Source: Candidatus Latescibacterota bacterium
GTDB lineage: Bacteria > Latescibacterota > UBA2968
Direction of reading: 5' to 3'
Assembly: GCA_965116885.1 (NCBI GenBank)
Contig: OZ220741.1
Coordinates: 4,384,001-4,448,000, forward strand
Length of the DNA: 64,000 nt
Position numbers and translations under genes: made by a program. The notes under the pieces were generated by a model that was given only the letters and a program-made list of their open reading frames with translations, was not told where the DNA came from and ran no database searches. Positions 8,167-48,434 of the stretch are shown here, one piece after another. Numbering within the stretch: the first letter of the stretch is position 1; every line of letters begins with the position of its first letter.

Positions 8167-8410
8167 GATCTCTCTCCTGTCATTACCACCTGATAAATGC
8201 TCATAACAGAAAAAATAAGACAACTTCCTATGGATGAGAAACATATTTTTTACCTTCCGATAGTCACATTGACCAGGGCGCCAGGGCGGACGTACTTTCC
8301 CGCATTCAAAAAAAGACCTGTTACTTTGCACGTCCCATTTTCGGGATCAATTATGGGACTGATCCCGACGACGCGCCCGGGCAGCGCGCTTTCCGCCAGC
8401 GGGTTGTATA

Positions 8411-9604
8411 TCATAGTTGTTCTCCTGTCAGACGAATACGTAACACACCCCTGAATCGCACGTTTTTGCGTTTCAGGGCCTCGATCTCTTTCTGCTTTTC
8501 CGCCAGTTTTCTCTCTACTTGCTCCAGTTTCAGGTAATGCACGGGCGGATAAGCCATTTTTAAGTCCTCCAGTTTTTCATAGATCTCTTGCTTCTGCCTT
8601 AACAAATCTTTTATGCGCTCAGCGAGACCTCTTAAAATGGGCTGAAACCGCAAAATCTCCTTTTTTTGCGCAAATTTGAATTCAATCTCCCGGGTAGTGA
8701 AACTGACAGCACCGCCCAGACGTTCTTCCTCCCCAACTTCAAAAGAAGCATCTGCCTCGAGCAGGCCAGACACAAAACTGTTTGCGGGGATCCGCTCCAC
8801 CAGTTCCTGATAGGTCTCGCCTCTTAACTGAATCGTCTGTATTCTCACGGGACGATCCGTCTCCTCCACGCGCACCTTATCCGGCAAAATGGCACCGTGT
8901 TCTCCGCAGGTCAGAACTCGCCCATTGAAAAAGATCCAGAACCAAGCGGGCCTGGCATCGAGGATCAGGGCTTTTCCACTCACCTTCTCCCGCGTGTGTC
9001 GCCATTGTCCTTCAAAATTCAAATAGGTTTCTGTATTGGCTCTCCGATAATCTGAGTATGCGGCCGAAGGCGTCGCCATCAGGTATCTAAACGATCGCCA
9101 GATACCCCCCTTATGTGATACGGGCATGAACAATAGGAGCAGTATGACAACCACAGCCAATACAGTGCCCTCCCCCATGAGGGATCCCGTTTTGATTCTG
9201 TATCTCGCACTGCCAGGAAAAACGCAAACCGCGGGATGGGGATAAAACAGGGGCACGCCGCTTTTGGTCGTACTATCGGCGATCAGATGGCTCATATAGC
9301 CCAGGAGCACAGCCGCATAACATGCGGTTTCCCAGGCGAGTAAAGGCAGAGTGACAACCGATAGAGCGAGCATACAGAGCAGCGAATGCGTAATCGTGCG
9401 GTGCCCCCATCGCCGCTCAATCGGGATCGAAGCAAAGGGCATCGCCTTGCCAATAGAACTCCTCGGTGAATCCACATCTGGAAGCAGGCTCCCTATGATC
9501 GCGCATGCGACCGCGGGAAGATTGCGGTGAAAGGACATGGAAAAGAGCGAAAAGGAACTCGCCACCGTGAGCAACCCAAATGCAATGTGTGTAGGTGCAG
9601 TCAT
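8411..9604 (-). CDS. YdjM-like membrane metal-dependent hydrolase with C-terminal extension and coiled coil
   Basis: THIAFG, GSLLPDVD, GHRTITHS, SHLIAD..T..GVPLFYP motifs; ATGA overlap with the upstream recombinase gene. Confidence 0.85.
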   Translation of the reverse strand: MTAPTHIAFGLLTVASSFSLFSMSFHRNLPAVACAIIGSLLPDVDSPRSSIGKAMPFASIPIERRWGHRTITHSLLCMLALSVVTLPLLAWETACYAAVLLGYMSHLIADSTTKSGVPLFYPHPAVCVFPGSARYRIKTGSLMGEGTVLAVVVILLLLFMPVSHKGGIWRSFRYLMATPSAAYSDYRRANTETYLNFEGQWRHTREKVSGKALILDARPAWFWIFFNGRVLTCGEHGAILPDKVRVEETDRPVRIQTIQLRGETYQELVERIPANSFVSGLLEADASFEVGEEERLGGAVSFTTREIEFKFAQKKEILRFQPILRGLAERIKDLLRQKQEIYEKLEDLKMAYPPVHYLKLEQVERKLAEKQKEIEALKRKNVRFRGVLRIRLTGEQL

Positions 9605-11091
9605 CGTTTGAACCTGTACATAAAGAATCGAATGCCTACCAGAATCGCACTGCCAATGCCGGCCAGCACATACCCTTCCATACTCCCGATACCGCGCATG
9701 AAGAATCGCGCCGCGACCACGAATAGTAGAATCAGCACCACGGCGAACGTGAGATCGATCTGCGCTCGCGCGCCGGTGTGGGACACATCTCGCACCGCGG
9801 ATCGAGTTACCGCCGGTTCTTTGCGAAGCCGCTCCACAATCTCAATAATGGCGCGCGGATTACCAGCACTCTGTTGTAATACGCGAGTCTCGGTCATGGC
9901 GTAGTCTTCTATGTCGGCGCCCGCGGCGCACTGGCGGATGAGTTTTTTCGCGTCCGCAGTAGATAGGTGCTCTATTTCTACGCGGTCGAACTTCCAGAAG
10001 TATTTCTCGTAAGGCTTCCGGACTTCTGGTAGCGCAGCGATAATGGTAAACTTGCGGTTGAGTTTGTCGATCAATCGCCCGACGGAGGCGGTCATATCCG
10101 ACAGGTCATCCACGATCAACACGAACTCATTTTTCTTCACCGAGCCGAGCACCATATCTGTCCAGCCCTGAATGCTCGTGCGGGTGTGTTGCTTTTTGAT
10201 CGTTTTAAAGTTGTCTGGACCATCCGGACATAGCCTTCCGATTTTGTGCAACCCCTCCGCAATATTTATCAGGTTCTCTTTCACTGGTGAAAGCGTCTTT
10301 ACCTTCAGCGCGTTCTCTGCGTTGAGCAACGCGAGTAAATGACTTTTGCCCACGCCAATCGGGCCAAGCAATAGTGTGTCAATACCCTTGCTCAAGTTGT
10401 CTGTGAGTTGGCACAATTCCTCATCGCGTCCCACTGTCTTTCCCATCTCGACTCTCGACCGCGCAAAAAATCTGTAATTGCGATTCTTCTGGCGCGACCA
10501 CCACCGCGACAACCGCGACCTGCGATCAATGCGATCAACAGAACGCCGCTTTTGCTCTTCACTAACAGAGATGTAGATGGAGGCTGTCTCAATGGACGCA
10601 TGCCCCATCAAGTCCTTGATCCGCTCGACCGGCACATCCCGATCTGCCAGGTCAGTGCCGAAGGTATGCCTGAGCATGTGCGGATGGACGTGGCGGATCC
10701 CCGCGCGCTGCGCGCAGGTCTTCATGGCCGCCCACACAGTCTTGCGGCTGAGTTGCTGTCCGTTGCGGAGATTGTAAAAGACGTATTCAGAATCCGAAAA
10801 CCGACGGGACTCCAGCCATTCTCGGAGCACATCCTGCACCTCGGGGTTCATCGGGACAACGCGCTCTTTGCCACGCTTATCCGCAAAGCGAAGGCTCGGT
10901 GTGTCCGTTGACCAGTGGATATTGTCAACCGTGAGTGAACACGCTTCGGAAACGCGCAGACCACACATCGAGAGCACGGCGATCAGCGCGCGATCACGCG
11001 AATTCATGCGTACAGATTTGAGTGCTTCAAGCTCGTGTTGCGCGAGCGCTTTTGGTACTGCTGGACGGGTTGCGAGTGACTGGTGAACCAG
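9601..11091 (-). CDS. Tyrosine recombinase catalytic domain fused to a P-loop ATPase and two C-terminal TM helices
   Basis: GLRVSE, KRGKERVVP, HPHMLRH, LMGH, TASIY catalytic set; Walker A GPIGVGKS; Walker B LIVDD; GNPR motif; hydrophobic C-terminus. Frame is open upstream of the ATG at 11007 to a CTG at 11091 preceded by AGGAGG. Confidence 0.88.
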   Translation of the reverse strand: MVHQSLATRPAVPKALAQHELEALKSVRMNSRDRALIAVLSMCGLRVSEACSLTVDNIHWSTDTPSLRFADKRGKERVVPMNPEVQDVLREWLESRRFSDSEYVFYNLRNGQQLSRKTVWAAMKTCAQRAGIRHVHPHMLRHTFGTDLADRDVPVERIKDLMGHASIETASIYISVSEEQKRRSVDRIDRRSRLSRWWSRQKNRNYRFFARSRVEMGKTVGRDEELCQLTDNLSKGIDTLLLGPIGVGKSHLLALLNAENALKVKTLSPVKENLINIAEGLHKIGRLCPDGPDNFKTIKKQHTRTSIQGWTDMVLGSVKKNEFVLIVDDLSDMTASVGRLIDKLNRKFTIIAALPEVRKPYEKYFWKFDRVEIEHLSTADAKKLIRQCAAGADIEDYAMTETRVLQQSAGNPRAIIEIVERLRKEPAVTRSAVRDVSHTGARAQIDLTFAVVLILLFVVAARFFMRGIGSMEGYVLAGIGSAILVGIRFFMYRFKR

Positions 11092-11144
11092 GGGAATGCC
11101 CTCCTGAATGGGTTTGGAACTGAAACTTCGTGCCCTTTAAATAG

Positions 11145-11274
11145 TGCAAAAATCGTGCCAAACAAGCCGAAAAACCCGTAAGTGCTTGCAGGAGAGCGTA
11201 TTTTTAAAAAACGCCCAAAAACGGACATGCCGAAAACTGTTTCAAATGAAACAGTTGGTGTGTCATATGACACA
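11145..11274 (-). promoter_or_regulatory. sigma54 promoter with IHF-like site and two palindromic upstream activator sites
   Basis: TTGGCACGATTTTTGCA (11145-11161, minus strand); CAAGCACTTA IHF-like site near 11180; palindromes TGTTTCAAATGAAACA (11238-11253) and TGTGTCATATGACACA (11259-11274). Confidence 0.85.
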
Positions 11275-11403
11275 GTTGGGATAGGAATGAGGCAGGGGGA
11301 TTACAGAGGAAATCACACAAAAAATGCCCTGAAGAACACGGGGCATTTTGGAGGGTAGTTATGATATTGGTGCTCTGATGAGCACTATATTGGAAATGTC
11401 GCG

Positions 11404-13003: not shown

Positions 13004-13744
13004 TTACGGATACATTAATTCTATATTTAATCGCAATTCCTTATCTAAGGAATCACCAAACATCCACTTATCCTCACAAAATATTCGCAATAGGTTTTGA
13101 AGATGCTTTGGTATCGGATCGCCTTCAATACTTAGAATATCCTCAATATCGGCACAGTCTGATGGATCGATAGTAAACCTATATGGCGTGATAGATGATG
13201 AAAAGGGAGCTTTCAATAAATCAAATTTCCTGCATGAATCAGAATCGCGCCAATCAGCAGGTGCGATGGCAAAACCATCCTGACGGATCCATCGATGCTT
13301 TAAACCGCCATCGTCAAGCTGATGAGTCAAAAAAAAATGATCAATTATGATTGCTTTATTTGACATGGTTTTACAATCCAGTTTGTAGATGACCGCCTCT
13401 TGACCCGGCTTAGCATTAAGGAGAGCAAAGAATATCGCTACTTCAAGTTTTGCAGACAGATCAATCAATGGGGTGGGCCATCCGTAGTGCTGGAGTACTG
13501 CAATTCCGTCTAGCGGACCTATACTGTAACCACGTAAGCCCTTGCCGATTTCTTTGGCATAACGGCACGTCGTGTAGGCTTGTCCAATCCGCAGTTTTTC
13601 ACACGCTGGGATACGTGCGAAGCGCGATTTTACACTCGAGTAAATTTGTGATTGTCCACGAAACAAGAATCGTGGTTTTCCTGATGGTAGCATTTCTTTT
13701 TCTAGAGACTCGAGTTGAGTTCTGATTGATGCGAGCTGTGTCAT
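13004..13744 (-). CDS. FRG domain protein
   Basis: LFRGQ, LQHYGWPTPLIDLS, VAIFFA, RWIRQDGF motifs; RBS AAGGAG. Confidence 0.85.
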   Translation of the reverse strand: MTQLASIRTQLESLEKEMLPSGKPRFLFRGQSQIYSSVKSRFARIPACEKLRIGQAYTTCRYAKEIGKGLRGYSIGPLDGIAVLQHYGWPTPLIDLSAKLEVAIFFALLNAKPGQEAVIYKLDCKTMSNKAIIIDHFFLTHQLDDGGLKHRWIRQDGFAIAPADWRDSDSCRKFDLLKAPFSSSITPYRFTIDPSDCADIEDILSIEGDPIPKHLQNLLRIFCEDKWMFGDSLDKELRLNIELMYP

Positions 13745-16876: not shown

Positions 16877-19741
16877 CTATCCCGAGCAATTCGAGCCTGC
16901 GGCATCTGTAATACCCTGAAGCCACGCCTGAAAGGCCGCATCAAGCGGCGCACATAGCCCTGTGTTATGAAAGTAAAATTGCTTCAGCTTTGTCAGCCCG
17001 GGCAGGCTTTGGGGAAGCGCACCCATCAAGGATGCGTTATCCTGGAGCCACAGAGTCTCAAGATTAGACAGGTTACCCAATTCTACTGGAATCTCATCAC
17101 TCAACTGATTGTTGCTAAGATCCAATGTCGTAAGATTGGACAGGTTACCCAATTCTACTGGAATCTCATCACTCAACTGATTGCTGTGAAGAGACAGTAT
17201 CGTAAGATTAGACAGGTTGCCCAACTCTGGTGGAATCTGACCTTCTAACTGATTGTCGCCGAGGTCCAGGGTAGTGAGACTGGACAGATTGCCCAATTCT
17301 GGTGGAAGCTCGCCACTCAACTGATTGCCCCAAAGATGCAATTGCGTGAGATTGGAAAGGGCGAACAATTCGGAGGGGATTGCAGTCAGTTGATTCCCTG
17401 CCAGACCGAGCCAACTGAGCGCGGTCAGGTCATCAAAGAAACCATCGGGCAAGCTACTGAGTTGATTCCCTTCCAGGCTGAGCGTTGTCAGACCAGTCAG
17501 ACCAGAAAAATCGCCAGACTTCAATTCTGTGAGGTTTGCATCATCCAAAATAAGAGAATTTATTGCAGATAGATGCTCCGCGGTCACATCGCCGCAAGCA
17601 CTTACAGGCACTTGTGCCACAATCCTGTCGCGCACGGCAGGCGTGCGGTCACATACCGGCACCCCTAACTCTACGCCACAATTCGAGCCATTGTGATCTG
17701 TAATACCCTGAAGCCACGTCTGAAAGGCGGCCTCAAGTGGCGCGCATAGCCCTGTGTTATGAAAGTAAAATCGCTTCAACTTTGTCAGCCCGGTCAGGCT
17801 TTGGGGAATCGCACCCGTCAAGGACGCATTATCTTCGAGCCTCAGAGACTCCAGATCGGAGAGTTTACCCAATTCTACCGGAACCCTACCACTCAACCGA
17901 TTGCCTTGAAGCGTTAGTACTATAAGGTTAGAAAGATTGCCCAATGCTTTGGGTATCTCACCACTCAACTGACTACGGTTAAGACCCAGAACCTCAAGAT
18001 TGGACAGGTTACCCAATTCTTTTGGAATCTCGCCACCCAACTGATTGTTGCCGAGGTCCAGGGTAGTGAGACTGGACAGATTGCCCAATTCTTTGGGAAT
18101 CTCACCTTCCAGTTGATTAGTATGAAGCCATAGGCCCTCAAGGTTAGACAGATTGCCCAATGCTGGTGGAATCTCGCCAACCAACTGATTGTCGCGAAGA
18201 CTCAGTGATATAAGATTAGACAGATTGCCCAATGCTGGTGGAATTGCACCTTCCAACTGATTGTTGTAAAGAACCAGTACCTTAAGATTAGACAGATTGC
18301 CCAATGCTGGTGGAATTGCACCTTCCAGTTGATTAGTATGAAGCCATAGGCCCTCAAGGTTAGACAGATTACCCAATTCTGTTGGAATCTCACCACTTAA
18401 CTGAGTGTCGTTAAGCCATAGTTCCGTAAGGTCAGATAGATCGCCCAATTCTGGTGGAATCGCACCTTCCAGTTGATTAGTACTAAGCCATAGGCCCTCA
18501 AGGTTAGAAAGGTTACCCAATGCTGGTGGAATTGCACCATCCAACCGATTGTTGTAAAGAGCCAGATGCGTGAGGTTAGACAGATTGCCCAATTCTGGTG
18601 GAATTGCACCTTCCAACTGATTGTTGTAAAGAACCAGATGCGTGAGGTTAGACAGATTGCCCAATGCTTTGGGAATCTCACCACTCAACTGAGTGTCGTT
18701 AAGCCATAGTTCCGTAAGGTTAGACAGATTGCCCAATGCTTTGGGAATCTCACCACTCAACTGAGTGTTGTTAAGCCATAGTTCCGTAAGGTCAGATAGA
18801 TCGCCCAATTCTTTTGGTATCTCGCCACCTAACCGATTTCTTTCAATATCCAGTACCCTGAGATTGGACAGATTACCCAATTCTTTTGGGATTCCACCAT
18901 CCAACCGATTGTTGTAAAGAACCAGATGCGTGAGGTTAGACAGGTTGCCCAATGCTGTTGGAATCTCGCCATCCAACCGATTGCCCCAAAGCCATAGTTC
19001 CGTAAGGTTGGATAGGCTACCCAATTCTTTGGGAATCGCACCACCCAACCGATTGTCGCTAAGACTCAGGAATGTAAGATTAGACAGGTTGCCCAATTCT
19101 TTTGGAATCTCGCCACCCAACAGATTACGGGTAAGACTCAGGAACGTAAGGTTAGAAAGGGCGAATAACTCTGAGGGGATTGCAGTCAGTCGATTAACTC
19201 CCATATCGAGCCAACTAAGCGCGGTCAGATCATCAAAAAAACCATCGGGCAGGCTACTGAGTCGATTCTCTCGCAGGTTGAGCTTTGTCAGACCAATCAG
19301 ACCAGATAAATCCCCGGCCTTCAACTCTGTGAGACGTGCACCAGATAGACTCAGAGAATCTATTGCTGATAGATGTGCCGCTGTCACATCCCCACAAGTG
19401 CTTACAGGCACCAATGCCACAATTGAGTCACGCACGGCAGGCGTGCGGTCACATACCGGCACCACTACTGCCTGTGACGGCACTTCTTTGCCAAACAAAT
19501 CGACAAATATCAAAAAGTCAGGAATACCTATCACACCATTGCCATCCAGATCATATTTGGTTTGATAGGTCCCATCACCACGACTTGATCCAAACTGCTC
19601 CACAAATAACAAAAAGTCGGGAATACCTACCACACCATCTCCATCAAAGTCCGCAGAACGTGTCGTATTCGCAGAAGCATTCCACACACACACCAGCACT
19701 GCAAGAGCGACAACATTCATAAACACCCATCTCTTTTTCAA
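16877..19741 (-). CDS. Secreted plant-type (24 aa) LRR protein with N-terminal dockerin/EF-hand-like pair
   Basis: Signal peptide; DFDGDG..DF and DLDGNG..DF motifs; two arrays of LxxLxLxxNxLxGxIPxxLGNLSN repeats with Cys caps; TTG start with AGGAGG. Confidence 0.92.
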   Translation of the reverse strand: MKKRWVFMNVVALAVLVCVWNASANTTRSADFDGDGVVGIPDFLLFVEQFGSSRGDGTYQTKYDLDGNGVIGIPDFLIFVDLFGKEVPSQAVVVPVCDRTPAVRDSIVALVPVSTCGDVTAAHLSAIDSLSLSGARLTELKAGDLSGLIGLTKLNLRENRLSSLPDGFFDDLTALSWLDMGVNRLTAIPSELFALSNLTFLSLTRNLLGGEIPKELGNLSNLTFLSLSDNRLGGAIPKELGSLSNLTELWLWGNRLDGEIPTALGNLSNLTHLVLYNNRLDGGIPKELGNLSNLRVLDIERNRLGGEIPKELGDLSDLTELWLNNTQLSGEIPKALGNLSNLTELWLNDTQLSGEIPKALGNLSNLTHLVLYNNQLEGAIPPELGNLSNLTHLALYNNRLDGAIPPALGNLSNLEGLWLSTNQLEGAIPPELGDLSDLTELWLNDTQLSGEIPTELGNLSNLEGLWLHTNQLEGAIPPALGNLSNLKVLVLYNNQLEGAIPPALGNLSNLISLSLRDNQLVGEIPPALGNLSNLEGLWLHTNQLEGEIPKELGNLSSLTTLDLGNNQLGGEIPKELGNLSNLEVLGLNRSQLSGEIPKALGNLSNLIVLTLQGNRLSGRVPVELGKLSDLESLRLEDNASLTGAIPQSLTGLTKLKRFYFHNTGLCAPLEAAFQTWLQGITDHNGSNCGVELGVPVCDRTPAVRDRIVAQVPVSACGDVTAEHLSAINSLILDDANLTELKSGDFSGLTGLTTLSLEGNQLSSLPDGFFDDLTALSWLGLAGNQLTAIPSELFALSNLTQLHLWGNQLSGELPPELGNLSSLTTLDLGDNQLEGQIPPELGNLSNLTILSLHSNQLSDEIPVELGNLSNLTTLDLSNNQLSDEIPVELGNLSNLETLWLQDNASLMGALPQSLPGLTKLKQFYFHNTGLCAPLDAAFQAWLQGITDAAGSNCSG

Positions 19742-20148: not shown

Positions 20149-23100
20149 ATGATCAAACCGCTTGTCCGCACGGGCACCTACCGGACTTATTCTATGGCCG
20201 ATGGCCTGGCCGGGGTGCGCATTGAACACATTGCCGAAGATAGCGAGGGGTGTATCTGGTTCGCCACATGGGAAAACGGCGTCAGCCGCTTTGATGGGGA
20301 CGAGTTTCAAAATTTTACGCAACAGAACGGACTTATTGATGATCGTACCTATTTTGTTACACAAGACAGTCAGAACCGATTGTGGTTTGGGACAGCAAAT
20401 GGCGTCTGCTGGTACGACGGAGCCAGATTCCACCATTTGAAGGACGATGGGATTGCAGACCGAGACGTGCGGTGTATCTACGAAGACAATGAAGGCCGTG
20501 TATGGTTCGGTGGTACCCGTACTATAGGGTATTACGATGGCACTGCTTTCCACGACATGATTCCGCTCTACCTGCAAGACTACGAAGAGCCTCCTTCTCC
20601 CAAGTGGCGTCCGTGTTGGGGTATTACTCAGGATCCGCAAGGACACCTGTGGTTCGGCTTTAACTACCTCATCCGCTTCGATGGTGAATCCTTCCACCGC
20701 TACGATGAGAAAGACGGTTTCTCTCAGGAAGGGACCGCCTATGCCGTAGATACGGATCATACCGGCAAAGTGTGGGTCGGACGGTTCGAAAATCGAGATG
20801 AAGTCTGGTGCTATGCCAATGGCACCTTCCAATCTGTTCAGGTCGATTTAGGTGGCGCACTGCGCAAAATACAGTGTGACCGTGAAGGGCGAATGTGGTT
20901 CTGTACGTCAGAAGGGGGATTGTATCAGGACGGTGATGGCTTTAGCAGGTTTACCATTGCCGATGGTTTGCCCCATCCCGCAGTCAAAGCCGTGTTTGAG
21001 GATCGAGATCATCAGTTCTGGTTTGCCACCTGGGGCGGCGTCGGTCTTTACGATGCACATAGTATCAGTGTTTTTGACCTCGATAAGGCTTCTCCCAAAG
21101 AGAAAGAGCCGAGCGAGATCTCGCAGATCGTACAAGACCGGCAAGGTGATATATGGATCGGGTGTGTATCACCCATTTTTTCCTATCTGAACAAAAGCGT
21201 CGCCCGCTTCGATGGTGAGCGCTTTGCATTTGTAGGCTCCGAGCAAGGCTTTGATCTCGACAACTGTTTCTCTATGTACGAGGATCACGAGGGATATATG
21301 TGGTTTGGCGGTCTCAATGGCCTGTTCCGCTACGATGGACAAGAATTCAAAAAGATGAAAATAGCTGCGGTTTCAGGCGACAGGAGTATCAGTGCAATTG
21401 CCCAGGACTTGCAGGGTCAATTCCTTTTCGGCTATTGGAAAAAGGACACTTATAAAACCCAATTTATGATAAAAGCAGAACTCTCGATCAGCCCCTTAAA
21501 GATCATTTACCAGCGGGACGAAACATTCCAAACCATTTTTGTAGAGAAAAAAAAGAAAGATGCTTTAGACCGTATTGGCACTGTGATTGCCGGGCGAGAT
21601 GGCGAGGTCTATTTTCATCTGGTCTGCCACAATTTTTCAGTTGGCAACAGGGGCCTGGCGCGGTGGCATCCCGAAGATGGTCTTAAATTTTATGGCATTG
21701 AAGATGGACTGATCGACGACAGGGTCACAGACCTTATAGAAGACCGCAATAGCAACCTGTGGATCGCTACTCTGAGTGGTCTTTGTCGCTTTGATGGCAA
21801 CACCTTCCAGACCTTCACGACAGACGATGGGCTGCCGAGCAACCGCATCCGTTGTTTGTTCGAGGATCGAAAAGGCCACATCTGGATTGGTACAGACAGG
21901 GGTGTGACGCACTTTGATGGTCAGCTTTTCCAGACCATCAACTCACCGCATATAGGACTGGTTTGTCGGATATTCGAAGATCGCGATGGAACATTCTATT
22001 TTGGCACGCTTCTGGGTTCTATCATACGCTACCGCCTGCGGCAAACTTCGCCCCGGATTCACTTGATACAAGTGATTGCTGATCAAGACTATGAGAATCT
22101 GGAGGAAGTCATCGTATCCACGGCGGGACAGCAGGTGATTTTCGAGTACAAGGGTCTGAGCTTTTCCACACACCCCAGCGACATGCTCTACATCTATCGC
22201 CTGAATGGCTATGACGCCGACTGGCAACCAGCGACCCGAAAGATGCGGGCGCATTACCGGGGCCTGCCACCGGGAGACTACACCTTCCAGGTCCGGGCTA
22301 TAGATCGCGATCTCAATTACTCAGAGATCGCGCAAGCGCGCCTCTCGATCACAGAAGACCCGCGTATCGAAGCATTGACCGACGTCATCAACCGGCGAGA
22401 AAGCCAGCAGTTTATTGGTCATAGCGTGGCTCTGCGCCAGTTTCAGACCAATCTTGAAAAAATTGCATCTACCAATATGACCGTGCTGGTTCTGGGCGAG
22501 ACAGGTGTGGGCAAGGGACTGGCTGCTCGAACACTACACGCGCTGAGTGCCAATAGCGACGGCCCTTTTATAGAGGTCAGTTGCGGTGCATTACCCGAAG
22601 CGTTGATCGACAGTGAGTTGTTTGGTCACGAGAGAGGGGCTTTTACTGGCGCAGTTTTCCACAGGCTGGGCAGGGTGGAACTGGCAGAGGGTGGTACGCT
22701 CTTTCTGGATGAGATCGGCGATATGGCTGTGGAAACGCAGTCCAAACTGTTGCGCTTGCTGGAAGAGGGCAGGTTTGAACGCATTGGGAGCAGCGAAACG
22801 CAGATGGCAAAGACGCGGGTTGTGGCAGCGACCAATCGCGACTTAAAGGAGATGGTCCGCACAGGTGATTTCCGGGAGGATCTGTATTACCGCCTCAATG
22901 CCTTTCCGATGTATTTGCCGCCGCTTCGCGAGCGCAAGGAGGATATACCAGAGTTGGCCGAGTTTTTCAAGACTCGCATGGCGACGCATCTGGGCAAGCG
23001 AATTGCTCCCCTGACACCTGAAATTATCGAGGTGTTGCAAAGCTACGATTGGCCGGGCAATGTGCGGGAACTGGAACATACCATACAGCGAGCCGTGGTT

Positions 23101-23367
23101 TTATGCCCTGATTCTCAAATCAGAAAGGGGAATCTGGGACTGTATGGTTCTCAAATCGAAGATACAGGTCATAAAGGGCAGACCTTATCGGCACCTCAAG
23201 ATCGAGAAGTCGAGTCTTTAGCAGAAATAGAGCGGCGCCACATTCTCGACGCGCTCGAAGCCACCAAATATCGGATAAAGGGACCCAGGGGCGCGGCGAA
23301 GAGGCTTGGCGTACCGCCTTCTACGCTGTATGGAAAAATAAACAGACTGGGCATCAAACTAAGCTGA
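20149..23367 (+). CDS. sigma54-dependent activator with two-component-regulator beta-propeller and Y_Y_Y sensor domains
   Basis: DGL..I..D..G.LWFGT repeats; [51 protein letters not shown]; Fis-type HTH. Confidence 0.95.
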
Positions 23368-23738: not shown

Positions 23739-25799
23739 TCAAAAGCTCATTTCAACCCCTCTGCGTTGAAGGGCTGGAATATGTGTCCTGAGTGATTCGG
23801 CACTTAACGGATTATTCTGTACACCAACCACATCTCCGCTGCCCAATCCCGTATTTGCGACCAGAGGCGCAAGATCCGAGATGCTGTTGTAGTAAAGCCA
23901 CAGCTGTTCCAGATTGGTCAAGCCTGAGAGTGCGGACAAATCTGTGATGTTGTTATTGTCAAGACGCAGTTCTTCCAGATTGGTCAAGCCTGATAATGGC
24001 GTGATATTCGAGATGTTGTTGCGACCAAGAAGCAACTTTTTCAGATTGGTCAAGCCTGACAGCGCGGACAAATCTCTGATGCTGTTCAACGTAAGATTCA
24101 GATAAGTCAGATTGGTCAAGCCTGACAGCGCGGACAAATCTCTAATTTCGTTCACGTTAAGAAACAGCGTTCCCAAGCGGGTCAAATTTGATAGCGCAGA
24201 TACATCCGAGATGGCGTTGACACGAAGATCCAGATAAGTCAAGTTGGTCAAGCCTGATAGGGTAGATAAATCTGAGATGGTGTTGTTAAAAAGGGTCAGA
24301 TATTCCAGGCTGGTCAGGCTTGAGAGAGGTGTGATATCCGAGATAGCGTTATGAGAAAGATGTAGATAGGTCAGGTTGGTCAAGCCTGAAAGGAGCGAGA
24401 TGTCGGATATCTCGTTGCTGTTGGAAAACGGATCAATCACACCGGAACCAAGATGTAGCCACACCAGATTGACAGCAAACTCAAGCCCTGTCAAATCCCT
24501 GACATTCCTATCCCGAGCGCCAAAGCGCGTCAAGGCCGCCATTTCAGCTACCGTGATTAGTGCCCCTTGCTCTTTGCCAAGACTGTCCTCGATAACAGCG
24601 CGCAGATTAACATCTGGAATACTTACATAAAAAGAAATCTCAACCCCTCTGCGGAGCAGGGTTACAATATGCGTTTTGCGTGATGTGTCACTCAACGAAG
24701 TTTCTCTCACATCAATCTCATCTCCACTACCCAATCCCGTATTTGCCACCAGCGGCGCGAGGTCTGAGATGCTGGTCTTGTAAAGTTTTAGACTTTCCAG
24801 ATTAGTTAAGCCTGAGAGTGCTGAAACATCACTGATACCGGTACCTGAAAGATCCAGCCTTTCCAGATTGGTCAAGGCAGACAACACAGATACATCATTG
24901 ATACTGGTGAAGGACAGATCCAGATCTGTCAAGTTGACCAGGACAGACAGCGCTGAAACATCACTGATGCTGGTATTAGCAAGAATCAGCCTTTCCAGGC
25001 CGGTCAAGGCAGATAGTGCTGACACATCCCTTATGAAGTTGAAGGACAGATCCAGATCTTTCAGATTGGTCAAAACTGACAGTACTGAAACATCACCAAT
25101 GAAGTTGGAGGAAAGATCCAACGACCTAAGACGGATCAGGCCGGACAATGCTGACAGATCAGTAATTCTGTTATTAGCAAGACTTAGCCTTTCCAGACTG
25201 GCCAAGACAGACAGCGCTGACACATCCTTGATGCTGATGCCGGAAATATCCAGTGTTGTCAGGCTGGTCAGGCTTGAGAGAGGTGAGAAATCGGTTATCT
25301 CGTTGCTATTGAGAAACTTATTCTCCACGCTCTCGCCACCAAGATCTATCCATATCAGATTAGTTGCAAACTCAAGCCCGGCCAAATCTCTGATATTCTT
25401 GTTCCGCGCCTCAAGGCGCCTCAAGGCCGCCATCTCACTCTGAGTGATCGGCGCACCGCTCGCCTTGCCGAAAATACCTTCAATAACAGCGCGTAAATTC
25501 CCATCCGGAATAGCAACCAGTGCTGCACCATCACCGCCAGAGGAAGGCTCCCCTTTGCCAAAGCTGCTGCTAAAGAGCAGAAAATCGCCAAAGCCAATTT
25601 CGCCATCGCTGTCCAGGTCGTACTTCGCGTCATATCGCCCATCGCCCTGACGCGCTCCAAACTGACCTGCAAACGCCAAAAAGTCGGCAAAATCAACCTG
25701 GCCATTGCCATCAAAATCAGCAGAAACTTGTCCCGAAAGAGATAGCGGATACACCAAAAGCGCGAGTGTGGATAGTATGAACAAAATAAGGTTACGCAT
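23739..25799 (-). CDS. Secreted internalin-type (22 aa) LRR protein with N-terminal dockerin/EF-hand-like pair
   Basis: Signal peptide MRNLIL...; IPD.NLRAVIE caps; ISDLSALSGLTNL..L.L..N repeats in two arrays. Confidence 0.9.
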   Translation of the reverse strand: MRNLILFILSTLALLVYPLSLSGQVSADFDGNGQVDFADFLAFAGQFGARQGDGRYDAKYDLDSDGEIGFGDFLLFSSSFGKGEPSSGGDGAALVAIPDGNLRAVIEGIFGKASGAPITQSEMAALRRLEARNKNIRDLAGLEFATNLIWIDLGGESVENKFLNSNEITDFSPLSSLTSLTTLDISGISIKDVSALSVLASLERLSLANNRITDLSALSGLIRLRSLDLSSNFIGDVSVLSVLTNLKDLDLSFNFIRDVSALSALTGLERLILANTSISDVSALSVLVNLTDLDLSFTSINDVSVLSALTNLERLDLSGTGISDVSALSGLTNLESLKLYKTSISDLAPLVANTGLGSGDEIDVRETSLSDTSRKTHIVTLLRRGVEISFYVSIPDVNLRAVIEDSLGKEQGALITVAEMAALTRFGARDRNVRDLTGLEFAVNLVWLHLGSGVIDPFSNSNEISDISLLSGLTNLTYLHLSHNAISDITPLSSLTSLEYLTLFNNTISDLSTLSGLTNLTYLDLRVNAISDVSALSNLTRLGTLFLNVNEIRDLSALSGLTNLTYLNLTLNSIRDLSALSGLTNLKKLLLGRNNISNITPLSGLTNLEELRLDNNNITDLSALSGLTNLEQLWLYYNSISDLAPLVANTGLGSGDVVGVQNNPLSAESLRTHIPALQRRGVEMSF

Positions 25800-25983
25800 T
25801 GGTCTTTCTTTTCTTTGTGTCATCAATCTCCTTGAAGGCTTCCGCATAGTCTTTTGCGGCATATAACTGTTCTGCATGAATCAGATGCTTGTCCGCCATG
25901 ATCTCCGGCGGTAGTTGGGCAGATGCAACTGTGAAGAAGCCCAATAAGACTGTAAAAAGAATGCCTTTGATTATGCTCTGCAT
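25792..25983 (-). pseudogene. Truncated member of the QLPPE N-terminal-module family
   Basis: MQSIIKG...FFTVASAQLPPEIMADKHLIHAEQL..., homology stops abruptly after about 50 aa. Confidence 0.75.
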
Positions 25984-29688: not shown

Positions 29689-32397
29689 CTATCCCGAGCA
29701 ATTCGAGCCTGCGGCATCTTCAATGCCCTGAAGCCACGCCTGAAAGGCAGCACCAAGCGGCGCACATAGCCCTGTGTTATTAAAGTAAAATTGCTTCAGC
29801 TTTGTCAGCCCGGTCAGGCTTTGCGGAAGCGCACCCATCAAGGATGCGTTATCCTGGAGCCACAGAGTCTCAAGATTGGACAGCTTGCCCAATTCTGGTG
29901 GAAGCTCGCCACCCAACTGATTACTGTAAAGATACAGTCCTGTAAGATTGGACAGATTGCCCAATTCTGGTGGAATCGCACCTTCCAACTGATTACTGTA
30001 AAGATACAGTTCCGTGAGATTGGACAGATTGCCCAATTCTGGTGGAATCGCACCGCGCAACTGATTGGTGTTAAGAGCCAGTATCTCAAGGTTAGACAGC
30101 TTGCCCAATTCTGGTGGAAGCTCGCCACCCAACTGATTGTCGCCGAGGTCCAGGGTAGTGAGACTGGACAGATTGCCCAATTCTGGTGGAAGCTCGCCAC
30201 TCAACTGATTGCCCCAAAGATGCAATTGCGTGAGATTGGAAAGGGCGAACAATTCGGAGGGGATTGCGGTCAGTTGATTACCTCCCAGATAGAGCCATCT
30301 GAGCGCGGTCAGGTCATCAAAGAAACCATCGGGCAAGCTACTGAGTTGATTCCCTTCCAGGCTGAGCGTTGTCAGACCGGTCAGACCAGAAAAATCGCCA
30401 GACTTCAATTCTGTGAGGTTTGCATTATCCAAAATGAGAGAATTTATTGCAGATAGATGCTCCGCGGTCACATCGCCGCAAGCACTTACAGGCACTTGTG
30501 CCACAATCCTGTCGCGTACTGCATCCGTGCGGTCACATACCGACAGCCCCACTCCACAATTCGAGCCTGCGGCATCTTCAATGCCCTGAAGCCACGCCTG
30601 AAAGGCAGCACCAAGCGGCGCACATAGCCCTGTGTTATTAAAGTAAAATAGCTTCAGCTTTGTCAGCCCGGTCAGGCTTTGCGGAAGCGCACCCATCAAG
30701 GATGCGTTATCCTGGAGCCACAGAGTCTCAAGATTGGACAGGTTACCCAATGCTGGTGGAAGCTTGCCACTCAACTGATTGCTGTGAAGAATCAGTCGCG
30801 CAAGGTTGGACAGATTACCCAACTCTGGTGGAATCGCACCTTCCAACTGATTACTGTAAAGATACAGTTCCGTGAGATTGGACAGATTGCCCAATGCTGG
30901 TGGAATCGCACCTTCCAACTGATTAATGTAAAGATACAGTTCCGTGAGATTGGACAGATTGCCCAATGCTGGTGGAATTGCACCTTCCAACTGATTGCTG
31001 TGAAGAGCCAGTATCTCAAGGTTAGAAAGGTTACCCAATGCTGGTGGAATTGCACCTTCCAACCGATTGTTGTAAAGAGCCAGATGCGTGAGGTTAGACA
31101 GATTGCCCAATTCTGGTGGAATTGCACCTTCCAGTTGATTAGTATGAAGCCATAGGCCCTCAAGGTTAGAAAGGTTACCCAATGCTGGTGGAATTGCACC
31201 TTCCAACCGATTGTTGTTAAGAGCCAGATGCGTGAGGTTAGACAGATTACCCAACTCTGGTGGAATTGCACCTTCCAACCGATTGTTGTAAAGACCCAGA
31301 TGCGTGAGGTTAGACAGATTGCCCAATTCTGGTGGAATTGCACCTTCCAACCGACTGTTGAAAAGAATCAGATGCGTGAGGTTAGACAGATTGCCCAATG
31401 CTTTGGGAATCTCACCACTCAACTGAGTGTCGTTAAGCCATAGTTCCGTAAGGTCAGATAGATCGCCCAATTCTTTTGGTATCTCGCCACCTAACCGATT
31501 TCTTTCAATATCCAGTACCCTGAGATTGGACAGATTACCCAATTCTGTTGGGATTCCACCATCCAACCGATTATCGTAAAGAGCCAGGTGCGTAAGATTA
31601 GACAGGTTGCCCAATTCTGTTGGAATCTCGCCATCCAACCGATTGCCCCAAAGCCATAGTTCCGTAAGTTTGGATAGGCTACCCAATTCTTTGGGAATCG
31701 CACCACCCAACTGATTGTCGCTAAGACTCAGGAATGTAAGATTAGACAGGTTGCCCAATTCTTTTGGAATCTCGCCACCCAACAGATTACGGGTAAGACT
31801 CAGGTACGTAAGGTTAGAAAGGGCGAATAACTCTGAGGGGATTGCAGTCAGTCGATTATCTCCCATATGGAGCCAACTAAGCGCGGTCAGATCATCAAAA
31901 AAACCATCGGGCAGGCTACTGAGTCGATTCTCTCGCAGGTTGAGCTTTGTCAGACCAGTCAGACCAGATAAATCACCCGCCTTCAACTCTGTGAGGTTGC
32001 TGCCTGCCAAACTAAGAGAATCTATCCCAGCCAAATGCGCCCCCGTCACATCGCCACAAGTGCTTACAGGCACCAATGCCACAATTGAGTCACGCACGGC
32101 AGACGTGCGGTCACATACCGGCACCACTACTGCCTGTGACGGCACTTCTTTGCCAAACGAATCGACAAATATCAAAAAGTCGGGAATACCTATCACACCA
32201 TTGCCATCCAGATCATATTTGGCCTGATAGGTCCCATCGCCACGACTTGATCCAAACTGCTCCACAAATAACAAAAAGTCGGGAATACCTACGATACCAT
32301 CTCCATCAAAGTCCGCAGAACGTGTCGTATTCGCAGAGGCATTCCCCACACATACCAGTACAGAAAGAATGGTCATAAACACCCCTCTCTTTTTCAT
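29689..32397 (-). CDS. Secreted plant-type LRR protein, paralog of 16877..19741
   Basis: Same architecture with different repeat number and order; start MKKRG with RBS AGGAG. Confidence 0.92.
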   Translation of the reverse strand: MKKRGVFMTILSVLVCVGNASANTTRSADFDGDGIVGIPDFLLFVEQFGSSRGDGTYQAKYDLDGNGVIGIPDFLIFVDSFGKEVPSQAVVVPVCDRTSAVRDSIVALVPVSTCGDVTGAHLAGIDSLSLAGSNLTELKAGDLSGLTGLTKLNLRENRLSSLPDGFFDDLTALSWLHMGDNRLTAIPSELFALSNLTYLSLTRNLLGGEIPKELGNLSNLTFLSLSDNQLGGAIPKELGSLSKLTELWLWGNRLDGEIPTELGNLSNLTHLALYDNRLDGGIPTELGNLSNLRVLDIERNRLGGEIPKELGDLSDLTELWLNDTQLSGEIPKALGNLSNLTHLILFNSRLEGAIPPELGNLSNLTHLGLYNNRLEGAIPPELGNLSNLTHLALNNNRLEGAIPPALGNLSNLEGLWLHTNQLEGAIPPELGNLSNLTHLALYNNRLEGAIPPALGNLSNLEILALHSNQLEGAIPPALGNLSNLTELYLYINQLEGAIPPALGNLSNLTELYLYSNQLEGAIPPELGNLSNLARLILHSNQLSGKLPPALGNLSNLETLWLQDNASLMGALPQSLTGLTKLKLFYFNNTGLCAPLGAAFQAWLQGIEDAAGSNCGVGLSVCDRTDAVRDRIVAQVPVSACGDVTAEHLSAINSLILDNANLTELKSGDFSGLTGLTTLSLEGNQLSSLPDGFFDDLTALRWLYLGGNQLTAIPSELFALSNLTQLHLWGNQLSGELPPELGNLSSLTTLDLGDNQLGGELPPELGKLSNLEILALNTNQLRGAIPPELGNLSNLTELYLYSNQLEGAIPPELGNLSNLTGLYLYSNQLGGELPPELGKLSNLETLWLQDNASLMGALPQSLTGLTKLKQFYFNNTGLCAPLGAAFQAWLQGIEDAAGSNCSG

Positions 32398-32540
32398 ATT
32401 CCACACTCCTTCAAAAAATGTGACTCAAATGGGATAAGTCTCAAAAGTTCTGTCAAAAGGTAGCCCCGTGATAGGGATCACAGGTCTCGCGATTCATACC
32501 GCTCGTTCATCACTTTGACAGAATTAAAATTTGTTTATAA

Positions 32541-32838: not shown

Positions 32839-35800
32839 ATGATCAAACCGCTTGAGCGCACGGGCACCTATCAGACCTATTCTATGGCCGACGGCCTGGC
32901 CGGAATGCGCATTGAACACATTGCCGAAGATAGCGAGGGTTATCTCTGGTTCGCCATATGGGACAATGGTGTCAGTCGCTTTGATGGAGACGAGTTCCAG
33001 CATTTTACACGGCAGGAAGGTCTTGTCAGTGACCGCGTTTATTTCATTCAAAAGGACAGTCAGAATCGGTTGTGGTTTGGCACATTAAACGGGGTCTGCT
33101 GGTATGATGGGACAAATTTCCACCATTTGAAGGATGATGGGATTGTAGGCCGTGCTGTGCAGTTCATTTACGAAGACAATGAGGGGCGTATATGGTGTGG
33201 TGGTCACAGGACGCTGGGGTATTACGATGGCACTGCTTACCGCGATTTGGTTCCGCTCTATCTTCAGCACTACGAGGAACCGCCGTCTCCTTCCTGGCCC
33301 AACCAATGTCGGGGTATTGCCCAGGATCCTGAAGGTCACCTGTGGTTTGGTTTTACCTATCTCATCCGCTTTGATGGCGTATCCTTCCGCCGATATGATG
33401 AGAAAGAGGGGTTTCCGCCGCGCCCGACGAGCTATGCCCTGGGTCAGGATCACAATGGCAACGTGTGGTTTGGCCAGCGCAGGGGCGAGAGTAAACTCTG
33501 GCGCTATGCCGACGGCGACTTTGAGGCTGTTCAGATAGAGTTTGGTGGTCCAGTGCGCAAAATTCAGTGCGATAGAGAAGGACGGATGTGGCTTAGCACT
33601 TCAATGGAAGTGCTCTATCAGGATGGTGATGGATTCAGCAGGTTTACCCAGGCAGATGGCCTACCGGATTCCGCGGTTAAAGCCGTGTTACAGGATCGCA
33701 ATCATCAGTATTGGTTTGCCACCTGGGGCGGCGTCGGTCTTTACGATGCATATAGTACCAGTGTTTTCGAAAACAAGGGGCCCAAGGGAGCCCGTGGGGA
33801 GTTATCAAAAATGCGGGACATCTCGCAGATCGTGCAAGACCGGCGAGGTGATATATGGGTCGGGTATGCCGATCCTTTTCTCAACCATCTGGCGTACAGC
33901 CTTTTTCGCTTCAATGGCGAGAAATTTGCCTTTGTAGGCACAGAGGATAACCTGGATATCAACAACTGTTTTTCTATGTACGAGGATCAGGACGGGCATC
34001 TGTGGGTCGGCAGCGGCACTGGCTTATTCTGCTACGATGGGAAGAAGCTGAAAAAAATAGAATCAGTCGCGGATTTAGGCGAAGGGGGAGTTTGTGCAAT
34101 CACCCAGGACTCACAGGAGCGATTCGTTTTGGGATATTGGGAAAATGGCATACAAAAAAGAAGAGACCTTTTTGCCAGCCCATTAAAACTCATTTACCAG
34201 CAGGACGAGGCGTTCCAAACCATTTTTGTGGAGCAGGAGGAGAAAGACCCTGTCAGCCGCATTGGCACTGTGATTGTCGGGCGCAACGGCGAGTTTTATT
34301 TTTATATCCATCACCAAAATTTCTCTGACAATGGCGAGGGTTTCGCGTGCTGGCATCCCGAAGATGGTCTCAAATTTTATGGGATTGAAGACGGGCTGAT
34401 AGACGACAGAGTTACAGATCTTATAGAAGACCGCCATGGAAACTTGTGGATCGCTACTCTGAGTGGTCTTTGTTGCTTTGATGGCAACACCTTCCGGACC
34501 TTTACGACGGAAGACGGTTTGCCGAGTAACCGCATCCGTTGCTTGCTCGAAGATCGGCAAGGGCATCTCTGGCTCGGTACAGACCGGGGTGTGGCGCACT
34601 ACGATGGTCAGGTTTTTCAGACGATCAACTCACCGCATATAGGATCGGTTTGTCGGATACTCGAAGATCGCGATGGCGCCTTCTATTTTGGTACAGCCCA
34701 AAACACTCTGGTGCGCTATCGGCAACAAAAGATCCCACCCCGGATTCACTTGCTACAAGTGATTGCTGATCAAGACTATGAGAATCTGGAGGAAGTCATC
34801 GTATCCACGGCGGGACAGCAGGTGGCTTTTGAATACAAGGGCCTGAGTTTTTCCACCCATCCCAGCGACATGCTCTACATCTATCGCCTGAATGGCTATG
34901 ATACTGACTGGCAACCAGCGACCCGAAAAATGCGGGCGCATTACCGGGACCTGCCACCGGGAGACTACACCTTTCAGGTCCGGGCGATAGATCGCGACCT
35001 CAATTACTCAGAGATCGCGCAAGTGCGCCTCTCGATCACAGCAGACCCGCGTATCGAAGCATTGACCGACGTCATCAACCGGCGAGAAAGCCAGCAGTTT
35101 ATCGGTCATAGCGCGGCACTGCGCCAGTTTCAAACCAATCTTGAAAAAATCGCATCTACCAATATGACCGTGCTGATTCTGGGCGAGACGGGTGTGGGCA
35201 AGGGACTGGCTGCGCGAACACTACACGCGCTGAGTGCCCATAGCGAGGGTCCCTTTATAGAGGTTAGTTGCGGGGCACTGCCCGGGACATTGATCGATAG
35301 TGAACTTTTTGGTCACGAGAGAGGGGCTTTTACTGGCGCAGTTTTCCACAGGCTGGGCAGGGTGGAACTGGCAGAGGGTGGTACGCTCTTTCTGGATGAG
35401 ATCGGCGATATGGCTGTGGAAACGCAGTCCAAACTGTTGCGCTTGCTGGAAGAGGGCAGGTTTGAACGCATTGGGAGCAGCGAAACGCAGATGGCAAAGA
35501 CGCGCATTGTGGCAGCGACCAATCGCGACTTAAAGGAGATGGTCCGCACAGGTGATTTCCGGGAGGATCTGTATTACCGCCTCAATGCCTTTCCGATGTA
35601 TTTGCCGCCGCTGCGCGAGCGCCAGGCGGATATACCAGAGTTGGCCGAGTATTTCAAGACTCGCATGGCGACGCATCTGGGCAAGCAAATAGCTCCTCTG
35701 ACACCTGAAATTATCGAGGTGTTGCAAAGCTACGATTGGCCGGGCAATGTGCGGGAACTGGAACATACCATACAGCGAGCCGTGGTTTTATGCCCTGATT

Positions 35801-42261: not shown

Positions 42262-42284
42262 GGTGTCTCCCTTTACAGATCGAA

Positions 42285-46985: not shown

Positions 46986-47010
46986 TCGTTTTATCCTCTG
47001 GTTGTTTGTG

Positions 47011-47279
47011 GGGTCAAGTCCAAAAAGTTCTGTAAAATTGTAGCTCCGTGATATAGGGGTCAGAGCGTTTATTTCCAATCCGTCATGTCCAGGTAGCGTC
47101 TGCCTGTGATCCACTCGTCAGACCATTCCATACACAAGGCGCCGATGAGACGTTCACAAGCCTTTTCATTGGGGAAGATCTGCACCACATCAGCCCGTCT
47201 TTTGATCTCTCGGTTGAGTCTTTCCAACAGGTTCGTCGTACGGATGCGTCTTTGATGCTGTTGAGGAAAGTGGAAGCAA
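47011..47279 (-). mobile_element. IS256-family transposase 3' fragment with right end
   Basis: FPQQHQRRIRTTNLLERLNREIKRRADVVQIFPNEKACERLIGALCMEWSDEW.GRRYL is a typical IS256 C-terminus. Confidence 0.9.
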
Positions 47280-48290: not shown

Positions 48291-48434
48291 ACTACTTCGA
48301 GAAGCATTGCCGCGGCTGAGGCCAATGGCAAATGAAAAGACTGGACATCAAACTAACTTGAAGACGATGCAAAATCGGCTTACAGGTCCTGAAGAGGATA
48401 ATCTGCCCTGCGGACATTGTTTGCGTTTTACCAT

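Follow-up and report, generated by a model that had tools for sequence, protein, structure and literature searches.

Tyrosine recombinases are soluble, ATP-independent enzymes that consist of a core-binding domain and a catalytic domain. In the consulted part of their published classification, all members combine these two domains with or without an arm-binding domain, and that part mentions neither an ATPase nor a transmembrane segment (PMC8138268). Here we describe a different arrangement, on the minus strand of a 64,000-nucleotide stretch of a Candidatus Latescibacterota genome (contig OZ220741.1, positions 4,384,001 to 4,448,000; we call this whole stretch the window and number it from its first letter). 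One open reading frame (ORF) joins an Xer-type catalytic domain to a P-loop ATPase and a C-terminal hydrophobic hairpin, and is followed by a gene for a YdjM-like membrane metal-hydrolase. The two genes are what is left of a conserved accessory operon with a patchy distribution. Neither the fusion architecture nor the gene pair is described in the literature searched, in which subscription journals lay mostly outside coverage, in agreement with an earlier note on this DNA that recognised the architecture from no described system; the literature naming the nSTAND1 clade, in the part consulted, mentions neither integrases nor YdjM.

The catalytic domain of the fusion resembles XerC, XerD, XerA and XerH in sequence and fold and carries the R-K-H-R-H-Y set and, as in FtsK-activated Xer, its activity would be tied to a membrane-anchored ATPase. 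Unlike Xer, it lacks a core-binding domain and carries its ATPase in cis, the ATPase being of the AAA+/STAND type rather than an FtsK/HerA translocase; no dif-like site was found, and the genome has separate XerC/D-like genes. An AAA+ parallel is provided by the AAA+ partners of DNA-breaking enzymes, IS21 IstB and Tn7 TnsC, since the AAA+ part of the fusion could likewise give ATP-dependent DNA binding to a catalytic domain that has no DNA-targeting part. The NCBIfam IstB match of the fusion is weak (E 0.0012, far under the cut-off). In contrast to IstB and TnsC, the ATPase is fused and membrane-anchored and its partner is a tyrosine recombinase rather than a DDE transposase; no transposon ends were found at the fusion. 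With the STAND/NLR-like conflict NTPases (Avs, nSTAND) the fusion shares an enzymatic domain at the N-terminus ahead of a P-loop NTPase, weak AAA_16, NB-ARC and nSTAND matches, NB-ARC fold matches and a patchy, plasmid-borne distribution, but it ends in a membrane hairpin without a C-terminal repeat sensor, has a YdjM-like hydrolase as its obligate partner and is absent from PADLOC. The N-terminal 168 residues of that hydrolase match the family of E. coli YdjM and YbcI (DUF457, PF04307), from which it differs in bearing an extension of ~230 residues and in being obligatorily paired with the ATPase. Finally, the locus recalls NtrC-type sigma54 regulons in its consensus -24/-12 element, the tandem palindromes upstream and the NtrC-type gene beside sister loci, whereas the genes under control resemble no known sigma54 target.

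From its first canonical ATG the fusion ORF encodes 468 aa (9601..11007, minus strand), and its open frame extends upstream to the family start position at 11091, giving 496 codons. Pfam Phage_integrase (PF00589) matched residues 3-150 of the ORF with an E value of 3.3e-39 and, with Foldseek, placed an Xer-type catalytic domain with the R-K-H-x-x-R-H-Y set at 10558..11001 (minus). The NCBIfam XerA, XerD and XerC models aligned through their C-terminal halves only, from about position 111-133 (in the case of XerD, positions 124-280 of 290), and we therefore conclude that the fusion has no core-binding domain. A stop 48 codons before the ATG closes the upstream frame, and no additional domain is encoded there. 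In the relatives a mere 10-40 residues precede the catalytic domain, the family N-termini starting at an LPKAL...EL..L linker, and the AlphaFold model shows no extra N-terminal domain. The start of the recombinase domain coincides exactly with the linker at which a core-binding domain would finish. The catalytic R, K, H-x-x-R, H and Y were all found and are invariant or nearly so in an alignment of 22 family sequences.

The P-loop ATPase domain (9763..10440, minus) contains a Walker A motif (GPIGVGKS), a Walker B motif (LIVDD) and GNPR. In the same alignment G246, G248 and K249 of Walker A and D328, the first Asp of Walker B, are invariant. The Pfam AAA_16 match of the window ATPase is below threshold (21.8 bits versus a cut-off of 32.6), and some relatives pass it, for example L136 at 38.0 bits. 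An AlphaFold model of the 496-aa fusion built on the 22-sequence alignment reached a mean predicted local distance difference test (pLDDT) of 81.6. Foldseek matched its N-terminal part to XerH and XerA (E 6e-12 to 3e-10) and its middle part to the ATPases of RFC, ORC and NB-ARC proteins. No FtsK-family match to the fusion appeared in Pfam or NCBIfam; the ATPase is of the AAA+/STAND type and not FtsK-like. After the lid helices come two hydrophobic helices (448-468 and 471-494 of the 496-aa model), where a STAND-type C-terminal repeat or sensor domain was not found. This hairpin (9610..9750, minus), a presumed membrane anchor, is kept in both the fused and the unfused forms of the ATPase. Sequence searches of the PDB with the profiles of both families, ATPase and hydrolase, returned nothing below E 0.03, and longer fusions of 820-2340 aa were not found in a search that is itself weak evidence.

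These results bear out most of what the earlier note had read from the letters of this ORF. The recombinase catalytic domain and the P-loop ATPase do lie in one ORF, as confirmed by Pfam and by the conserved motifs; the catalytic set is complete without a core-binding domain, by the 22-sequence alignment and the C-terminal-only Xer matches; and the three ATPase motifs named there are all present. Its two terminal transmembrane helices correspond to two hydrophobic helices in the AlphaFold model, for which a role in the membrane is presumed. The parallel it drew with FtsK is weakened, since Pfam and Foldseek put the ATPase in the AAA+/STAND type.

The fusion is genuine and conserved rather than an artefact, because 83 of the 150 best representatives of the family are fused, including ones on plasmids of cultured Bacteroidota; the remainder comprise 35 full-length unfused proteins, 18 unclear cases and 14 fragments. 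The note had held that its reading would fall if homologs always kept the two domains in separate genes or if the junction were chimeric; neither is the case, fused forms being found in genomes assembled as one contig and on plasmids from strains in culture. Fusion homologs number 489 at E<=1e-3, with sources that include metagenome-assembled genomes of Gemmatimonadetes, Latescibacteria and Proteobacteria as well as Olivibacter sitiensis. When an ATPase-hairpin profile was scored against 1.84 billion representatives, it collected 664 clusters (50% identity) with E<=1e-3, of which 165 had E<=1e-30. The genome itself, a single contig of 5.56 Mb, has one copy of the fusion and, at other places, two ordinary Xer-like genes. 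Among 60 related genomes sampled, 15 of the 20 that belong to this genus contain the ATPase, which was detected in only 3 of the 17 genera covered. It also matched 11 plasmid records, all typed non-mobilizable; among the seven examined, it is fused on Flavobacterium pA5BP1 (14.4 kb), Spirosoma pTS, Haliscomenobacter pHALHY02 and a Flammeovirga plasmid, and unfused on plasmids of Methylobacter, Allochromatium (pALVIN01) and Nitrosococcus oceani (plasmid A). A profile search of genome contigs with the whole-fusion alignment, in which one of the two patterns was the generic HxLRH motif, gave 80 loci that were almost all ordinary Xer genes; the sole ATPase/YdjM pair among them was L011, from Truepera. 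The operon is accessory or mobile in character: it is patchy, plasmid-borne and found in many deletion variants.

The hydrolase gene (8411..9604, minus; 397 aa) overlaps the fusion ORF by 4 nt (ATGA). Its product combines a polytopic YdjM/DUF457 membrane metal-hydrolase domain, matched by Pfam YdjM (PF04307) over residues 1-168 at 96.6 bits against a cut-off of 29, with an extension of ~230 residues that is beta-rich and coiled-coil and ends in a helical hairpin (model pLDDT 82.4). The ATGA overlap with a YdjM-like hydrolase that has a long extension, read in the earlier note as translational coupling, is thereby confirmed. NCBIfam PRK11648 matched at E 5e-24, under the cut-off of that model, and a match to Zn-dependent phospholipase C was sub-threshold (E 1.6e-4). 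His6, Asp43, Asp45, His68, His73, His106 and Asp110 are invariant in 22 sequences; we take these positions to be metal ligands, and with all seven conserved the enzyme is probably active. Foldseek of the protein against the PDB gave no match at E<=0.001, and the ESM Atlas yielded no usable match for the extension. VIA-align found a likeness to the TrmB sugar-binding domain for residues 165-252 (Z 11, root-mean-square deviation 1.8, 77 aligned) and otherwise generic helical hairpins for the extension, so that an identity as the lipoyl/hairpin unit of a membrane-fusion protein was supported neither by Foldseek nor by VIA-align.

The ATPase and the YdjM-like gene form the invariant core of the operon, being adjacent in every locus examined. 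In the related genomes the YdjM-like gene directly follows the ATPase gene in 20 of 20 loci, 8 with the ATPase fused to the recombinase domain and 12 with it unfused, and 19 of these share the coordinates of ATPase end and YdjM start. Among seven metagenome contigs of 45-59% identity, five with the recombinase part, the YdjM-like gene comes after the ATPase gene in six: immediately in five, and ~1.7 kb downstream past an RDD-family ORF in L124. In L129 YdjM is only a below-cutoff trace at the contig end. The same order was seen in all seven plasmid records examined of the 11 that matched. A complex prediction for the ATPase-hairpin part with the hydrolase, in which the runs agree in >=96% of contacts and the partner has pLDDT >=76, scored 0.33 against 0.00 for the best of three controls; the mark used is reached by 116 of 157 solved complexes versus 2 of 215 mismatched pairs, and at scores <=0.60 by no more than 18 of those 157 and by the two mismatched pairs that passed, so that the prediction lends weak support to an association of the two proteins.

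The recombinase domain, by comparison with this core, appears to be optional. A FastTree phylogeny of the ATPase part (35 sequences, 281 columns), with the root assumed on five Bacteroidota-like fused sequences, placed the unfused forms within fused clades, with support of 0.34 to 1.0 at the key nodes, and Fitch parsimony gave a fused root and 5 changes. By this reconstruction the domain was lost about five times while the remainder was kept, which suggests that the core function does not need it. Where kept, it appears to be constrained by selection. Against four relatives in the genus, the synonymous to nonsynonymous codon differences are 12:4, 32:14, 35:16 and 36:19. Of the 83 fused representatives, 45 carry the complete R-K-H-R-H/W-Y set; taken singly, the second Arg occurs in 78 of them and the Tyr in 77, while the Lys of Walker A is found in 81 and the Asp of Walker B in 73.

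Upstream of the fusion gene lies a block that is conserved in clades A and B whether or not the recombinase domain is present, and which consists of a hairpin with a T-run, two to three palindromes, an A/T tract, a -24/-12 element, a ribosome-binding site and an ATG. In the window, homology to the related loci starts near 11400, and the terminator-like hairpin and T-run (11319..11346, minus), which align in clade A and B loci, mark the upstream edge of the conserved module. Next come two 16-bp palindromes (11238-11253 and 11259-11274; 21 bp from start to start), lying 87-108 bp upstream of a sigma54 -24/-12 element with perfect GG-N10-GC consensus, TGGCACGATTTTTGCA (11145..11160, minus), that is conserved in related loci. 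A Shine-Dalgarno sequence (AGGAGG, 11100..11105, minus) is situated 8 nt before the family start position and aligns with the ribosome-binding sites of the relatives. The palindrome pattern matches twice in the window versus 0.14 times expected (2 of 100 shuffles reached two), and perfect sigma54 sites occur four times versus 0.08 expected. The earlier note had called both the consensus promoter and the two spaced palindromes correctly; its IHF-like site did not hold up, as no match to the IHF consensus WATCARNNNNTTR with <=2 mismatches is found between the palindromes and the -24 element, where there is only the A/T tract. When the co-occurrence of fusion, YdjM partner and sigma54 motif was examined, as it had suggested, the partner was present in every locus examined and the motif was conserved within the genus. 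The motif also lies upstream in the metagenome loci L125 and L126 and in 0 of 7 plasmid loci; sigma54 control, predicted from a promoter conserved within the genus, would thus be lineage-specific.

The double palindrome has only three copies in the 5.56-Mb genome (a reversed control pattern has none), at three promoters: that of the fusion operon, that of a sister HlyD/YdjM locus, and a sigma54 site before a receiver/HTH regulator gene. Since the palindromes are also found at ATPase loci without a recombinase domain, and at three sigma54 promoters, they behave as enhancer sites, and by conservation and placement we regard them as putative upstream activating sequences for an NtrC-type activator rather than as recombination sites. 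A gene for an NtrC-type response regulator (receiver, sigma54 interaction domain and HTH_8) adjoins 7 of 9 clade B loci and lies directly upstream of L121, and this genome has an intact ortholog at about 1.036 Mb: two stops that might have made it a pseudogene fall, on translation, upstream of its start. Judged from adjacency only, this activator is the candidate to act at the palindromes, and the three promoters may form one small regulon. The third copy lies at G000:C1:1833533-1833569 (L141, 1501-1537) with its sigma54 site at 1614-1629, and the ORF that follows (233 aa) was read by eye as a receiver plus an AraC-type helix-turn-helix. The other three perfect sigma54 sites of the window, all on the minus strand (19852-19867, 32541-32556 and 47576-47591), have none of these palindromes; they precede very large ORFs (16877..19741, a leucine-rich-repeat protein; 29689..32406; 43224..47114), and two Reg_prop/Y_Y_Y sigma54 activators are encoded near window sigma54 sites (20149..23367 and 32839..36054). 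Genome-wide, 26 matches span the sigma54-interaction domain. A 248-aa ORF of the window (47872..48618, plus strand) has only the first half of that domain, is 81-84% identical to residues 120-249 of the sister loci's NtrC-type activator and looks like a truncated duplicate.

Nothing in the related loci, in flanking repeats or in read joints points to recombination having taken place. All 20 related loci are collinear in the promoter segment, with no inverted arrangement, and no conserved inverted repeats flank a segment: only short, low-identity pairs were seen, one of which, a 17-18 nt inverted pair inside the coding region, recurs in L118. Read evidence came from four runs, all as contigs. 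One joint between opposite strands (11240/11293) sits on the palindromes and was read as an assembly fold-back, and two others (7576/11624 and 11659/12200) come from one contig with 36-nt sides beside a high-depth repeat; none of these joints was accepted as an inversion. The inversions or excisions that the earlier note suggested looking for in reads were not found in these contigs, the joints seen being single-contig, short-sided or palindrome fold-backs, and its reading of the locus as an ATP-gated recombination system or invertase finds no support in loci that are collinear, lack flanking repeats and have the palindromes even where the recombinase is missing. Contigs from RNA libraries span only 8403-8563 (9 differences), 8995-9215 (22), 9767-9929 (2) and 11236-11274, too little for claiming transcription.

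The gene content of the operon varies between loci. The fullest loci (L118 and L122) begin with the sigma54 promoter, a gene for a CPBP/Rce1-like membrane protease (MVHQSL...) and the recombinase-ATPase gene with its own start, and continue with YdjM-like, HlyD-like, receiver-domain and HTH_36 plus DnaA_N genes. Other loci retain the promoter, the ribosome-binding site and the MVHQS leader, joined in frame to later points. The protease gene is partly deleted in L119 and L123; in the window's form, of which P0001 has the identical junction, the leader is fused to the recombinase N-terminus; and in L106, L108 and P0061 it runs directly into the ATPase, P0061 still having the LPK from the linker of the recombinase. 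All clade B loci likewise join the leader in frame to a later point. Deletion junctions that stay in frame can be seen at the loci without a recombinase domain, and this series within the genus amounts to a natural dissection of the dispensable parts. The window junction (11053..11055, minus) lacks ~750 bp of L118, namely the body of the CPBP/Rce1-like protease and the ribosome-binding site and start of the recombinase gene. A stand-alone CPBP/Rce1-like gene in genome G006 (L105, 19348-19983), 93% identical to that of L118 and with the same ribosome-binding site and MVHQS leader, lies ~8 kb from an operon that has no CPBP gene.

The window copy is eroded. The family start position (11089..11091, minus) reads CTG, where 19 of 19 alignable relatives (8/8 and 11/11) have ATG, and contig record 7 of run X1, which may be the source sample, spans 11053-11339 without a difference, CTG included. 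The CPBP-protease gene is deleted, and the HlyD-like gene, found after the YdjM-like gene in every clade A relative (10 of 10), in L120 and on 4 of the 7 metagenome contigs, is reduced to a remnant of 45 codons (8259..8393, minus; residues 196-240, 84% identity) of this HlyD-family adaptor. The sister clade B locus in the same genome (L132, G000:C1:1.625-1.628 Mb) has the double palindrome and HlyD-like and YdjM-like genes (65% identical), and lacks exactly the ATPase gene that separates these two in the G002 locus L113. We put it at close to an even chance, if slightly short of one, that the operon of the window, and of the window only, is a decaying relic that is poorly or not expressed. The CTG, the deletion of the CPBP and HlyD-like genes, the ATPase gene missing from L132 and the lack of a visible Shine-Dalgarno sequence before the internal ATG at 11007 speak for such decay; however, both ORFs remain intact, share 92-97% identity with relatives and show an excess of synonymous changes, and the promoter, the enhancer sites and an intact activator ortholog are all there. 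CTG can, moreover, initiate translation at low efficiency, and an RNA-library contig covers 9767-9929 with its two differences, a weak point given possible DNA carry-over.

As for the role of the complete operon, we tentatively favour, at somewhat less than an even chance, an ATP-dependent DNA-handling module of conflict or maintenance at the inner membrane, and not an integrase or invertase. An oligomer of the ATPase would take the place of the core-binding domain and bring the recombinase domain to DNA at the membrane's inner face, where this domain, as an effector, might nick DNA or hold it covalently; the metal-hydrolase would be a second effector, the target extrachromosomal or incoming DNA, and the recombinase domain an optional add-on to the core. 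In a more specific version, which we consider quite unlikely, the module would be a membrane-stationed DNA trap in which an AAA+ ring anchored in the inner membrane bears Xer domains that, with no need of a core-binding domain, nick incoming or extrachromosomal DNA and bind it covalently, and the paired membrane phosphodiesterase then destroys it or kills the cell; if true, this would be a principle of defence or exclusion that uses a tyrosine recombinase as an effector rather than as a recombinase. Several observations weigh against a DNA-handling module of this kind. No target DNA site or inversion was found for the fusion, and the ATPase had no match among 50,697 phage records. The recombinase domain is dispensable, as its repeated loss suggests, and in roughly a dozen of the 83 fused proteins F or T replaces the first Arg and I or L the second His, so the domain cannot work catalytically there. 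In PADLOC v2 neither protein matched a defence model, the best hit of the fusion being mad8 (E 0.0023, over the P-loop stretch) and the hydrolase having none, and the flanks were not enriched: 14 of 94 flanking ORFs at 13 loci matched, versus 5 of 21 baseline ORFs taken from elsewhere in the window, in a crude count at E<=1e-8 with many generic matches. In addition, neighbours of the HlyD-like, OEP-like and CPBP kinds suggest a link with the envelope rather than with DNA.

These neighbours underlie the reading of the operon as a module for envelope export, remodelling or stress, acting on lipids or envelope substrates in response to a sigma54/NtrC-type signal, with the recombinase domain as no more than an accessory for DNA binding or regulation, such as a regulator sequestered at the membrane. 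The wide presence of the HlyD-like gene, OEP-like genes in the Truepera locus and, weakly, on pA5BP1, the protease of the fuller operons, the sub-threshold phospholipase C likeness of YdjM, the sigma54 control and the survival of the core without a recombinase domain would all fit; we nevertheless consider this reading unlikely, since catalytic residues needless for mere DNA binding are conserved in most fused members, the hydrolase extension matched no membrane-fusion proteins, and replication- or DNA-type genes (HTH_36 plus DnaA_N, SSB and RecD-like helicase) are also among the neighbours. One 601-aa metagenome protein (P0215) unites YdjM, HTH_36 and DnaA_N, which links the hydrolase to the Rep-like gene that ends the fuller operons. 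The same protein, together with the HTH_36 plus DnaA_N gene of L118 and L122, the ORC and RFC likeness of the ATPase fold and plasmid contexts with rep, ssb, Gp157 and RecD-like genes, could be taken to mean that the operon serves the replication or maintenance of episomes, with the AAA+ protein as a membrane-anchored initiator or loader working with the HTH_36/DnaA_N Rep-like protein and the recombinase domain resolving multimers. Yet most loci are chromosomal and sigma54-controlled, Rep and ParA are separately annotated on the plasmids and the HTH_36 gene is absent from most loci, and to this account we give the lowest probability of all. Only a little more probable, and still highly doubtful, is a true site-specific recombinase (an invertase or resolvase) in which the fused ATPase at the membrane gates synapsis or strand exchange. 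A complete catalytic set under purifying selection and a fold that matches XerH and XerA are what such an enzyme would show, and a resolvase would be useful on the small plasmids that carry the family; against it stand the missing core-binding domain, the lack of conserved flanking repeats and of any inversion among the 20 related loci, palindromes that are shared with loci lacking the recombinase and with an unrelated third promoter, the repeated loss of the domain and the degenerate active site of some subclades.

Whatever its role, the family would represent a new use of the tyrosine recombinase fold: it retains the catalytic half, active site included, does without the half that clamps DNA and joins what is kept to an ATPase and a membrane anchor, an architecture present in at least 83 clusters at 50% identity across several phyla and on plasmids. 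A function for the operon would also provide the first functional handle on the large YdjM/DUF457 family. The cultured carriers Olivibacter sitiensis, Haliscomenobacter hydrossis DSM 1100 and Spirosoma taeanense and the 14-kb Flavobacterium plasmid make the system directly testable.

The genomic setting differs on the two sides of the operon. The left flank (239-8402) is syntenic in clade A loci and includes a tRNA-Phe gene (7111-7185, plus strand) as well as genes for a 1505-aa FtsX-domain protein, a DUF6785/DUF6784 protein and an FGE-sulfatase protein, whereas everything to the right of about 11400 differs between genomes. In the stretch of about 11480-11710, to the right of the promoter block, synteny is broken with all relatives; two metagenome runs have a depth spike at 11542-11708, and the plus-strand translation of about 11480-11710 resembles, by eye, the C-terminal end of an IS3-type transposase. 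An FRG-domain protein of the PADLOC candidate family PDC-S15 (E 4e-11) is encoded at 13004..13744 (minus). This and other defence-type neighbours are leads only: FRG/PDC-S15 in the window, PDC-S19/DUF3644 on pA5BP1, AbiD on the Nitrosococcus plasmid and NsnA/PD-T4-2_A in L120. Toxin-antitoxin pairs are also found among the neighbours. Beside clade B loci lie genes for an 815-aa STAND-like protein (L110, 13144-15588, and paralogs), often in two copies, which Pfam reads as AAA_16/ATPase_2 plus TPR rather than as the histidine kinase for which it was considered; these adjoin the NtrC-type activator, with a Schlafen/AlbA_2-HATPase_c_4 protein on the opposite side. Elsewhere the window encodes ankyrin and leucine-rich-repeat proteins and several FGE-sulfatase-domain proteins (39931..42366, 16877..19741 and 23739..25877), and the public DNA closest to the window comes from sponge metagenomes.

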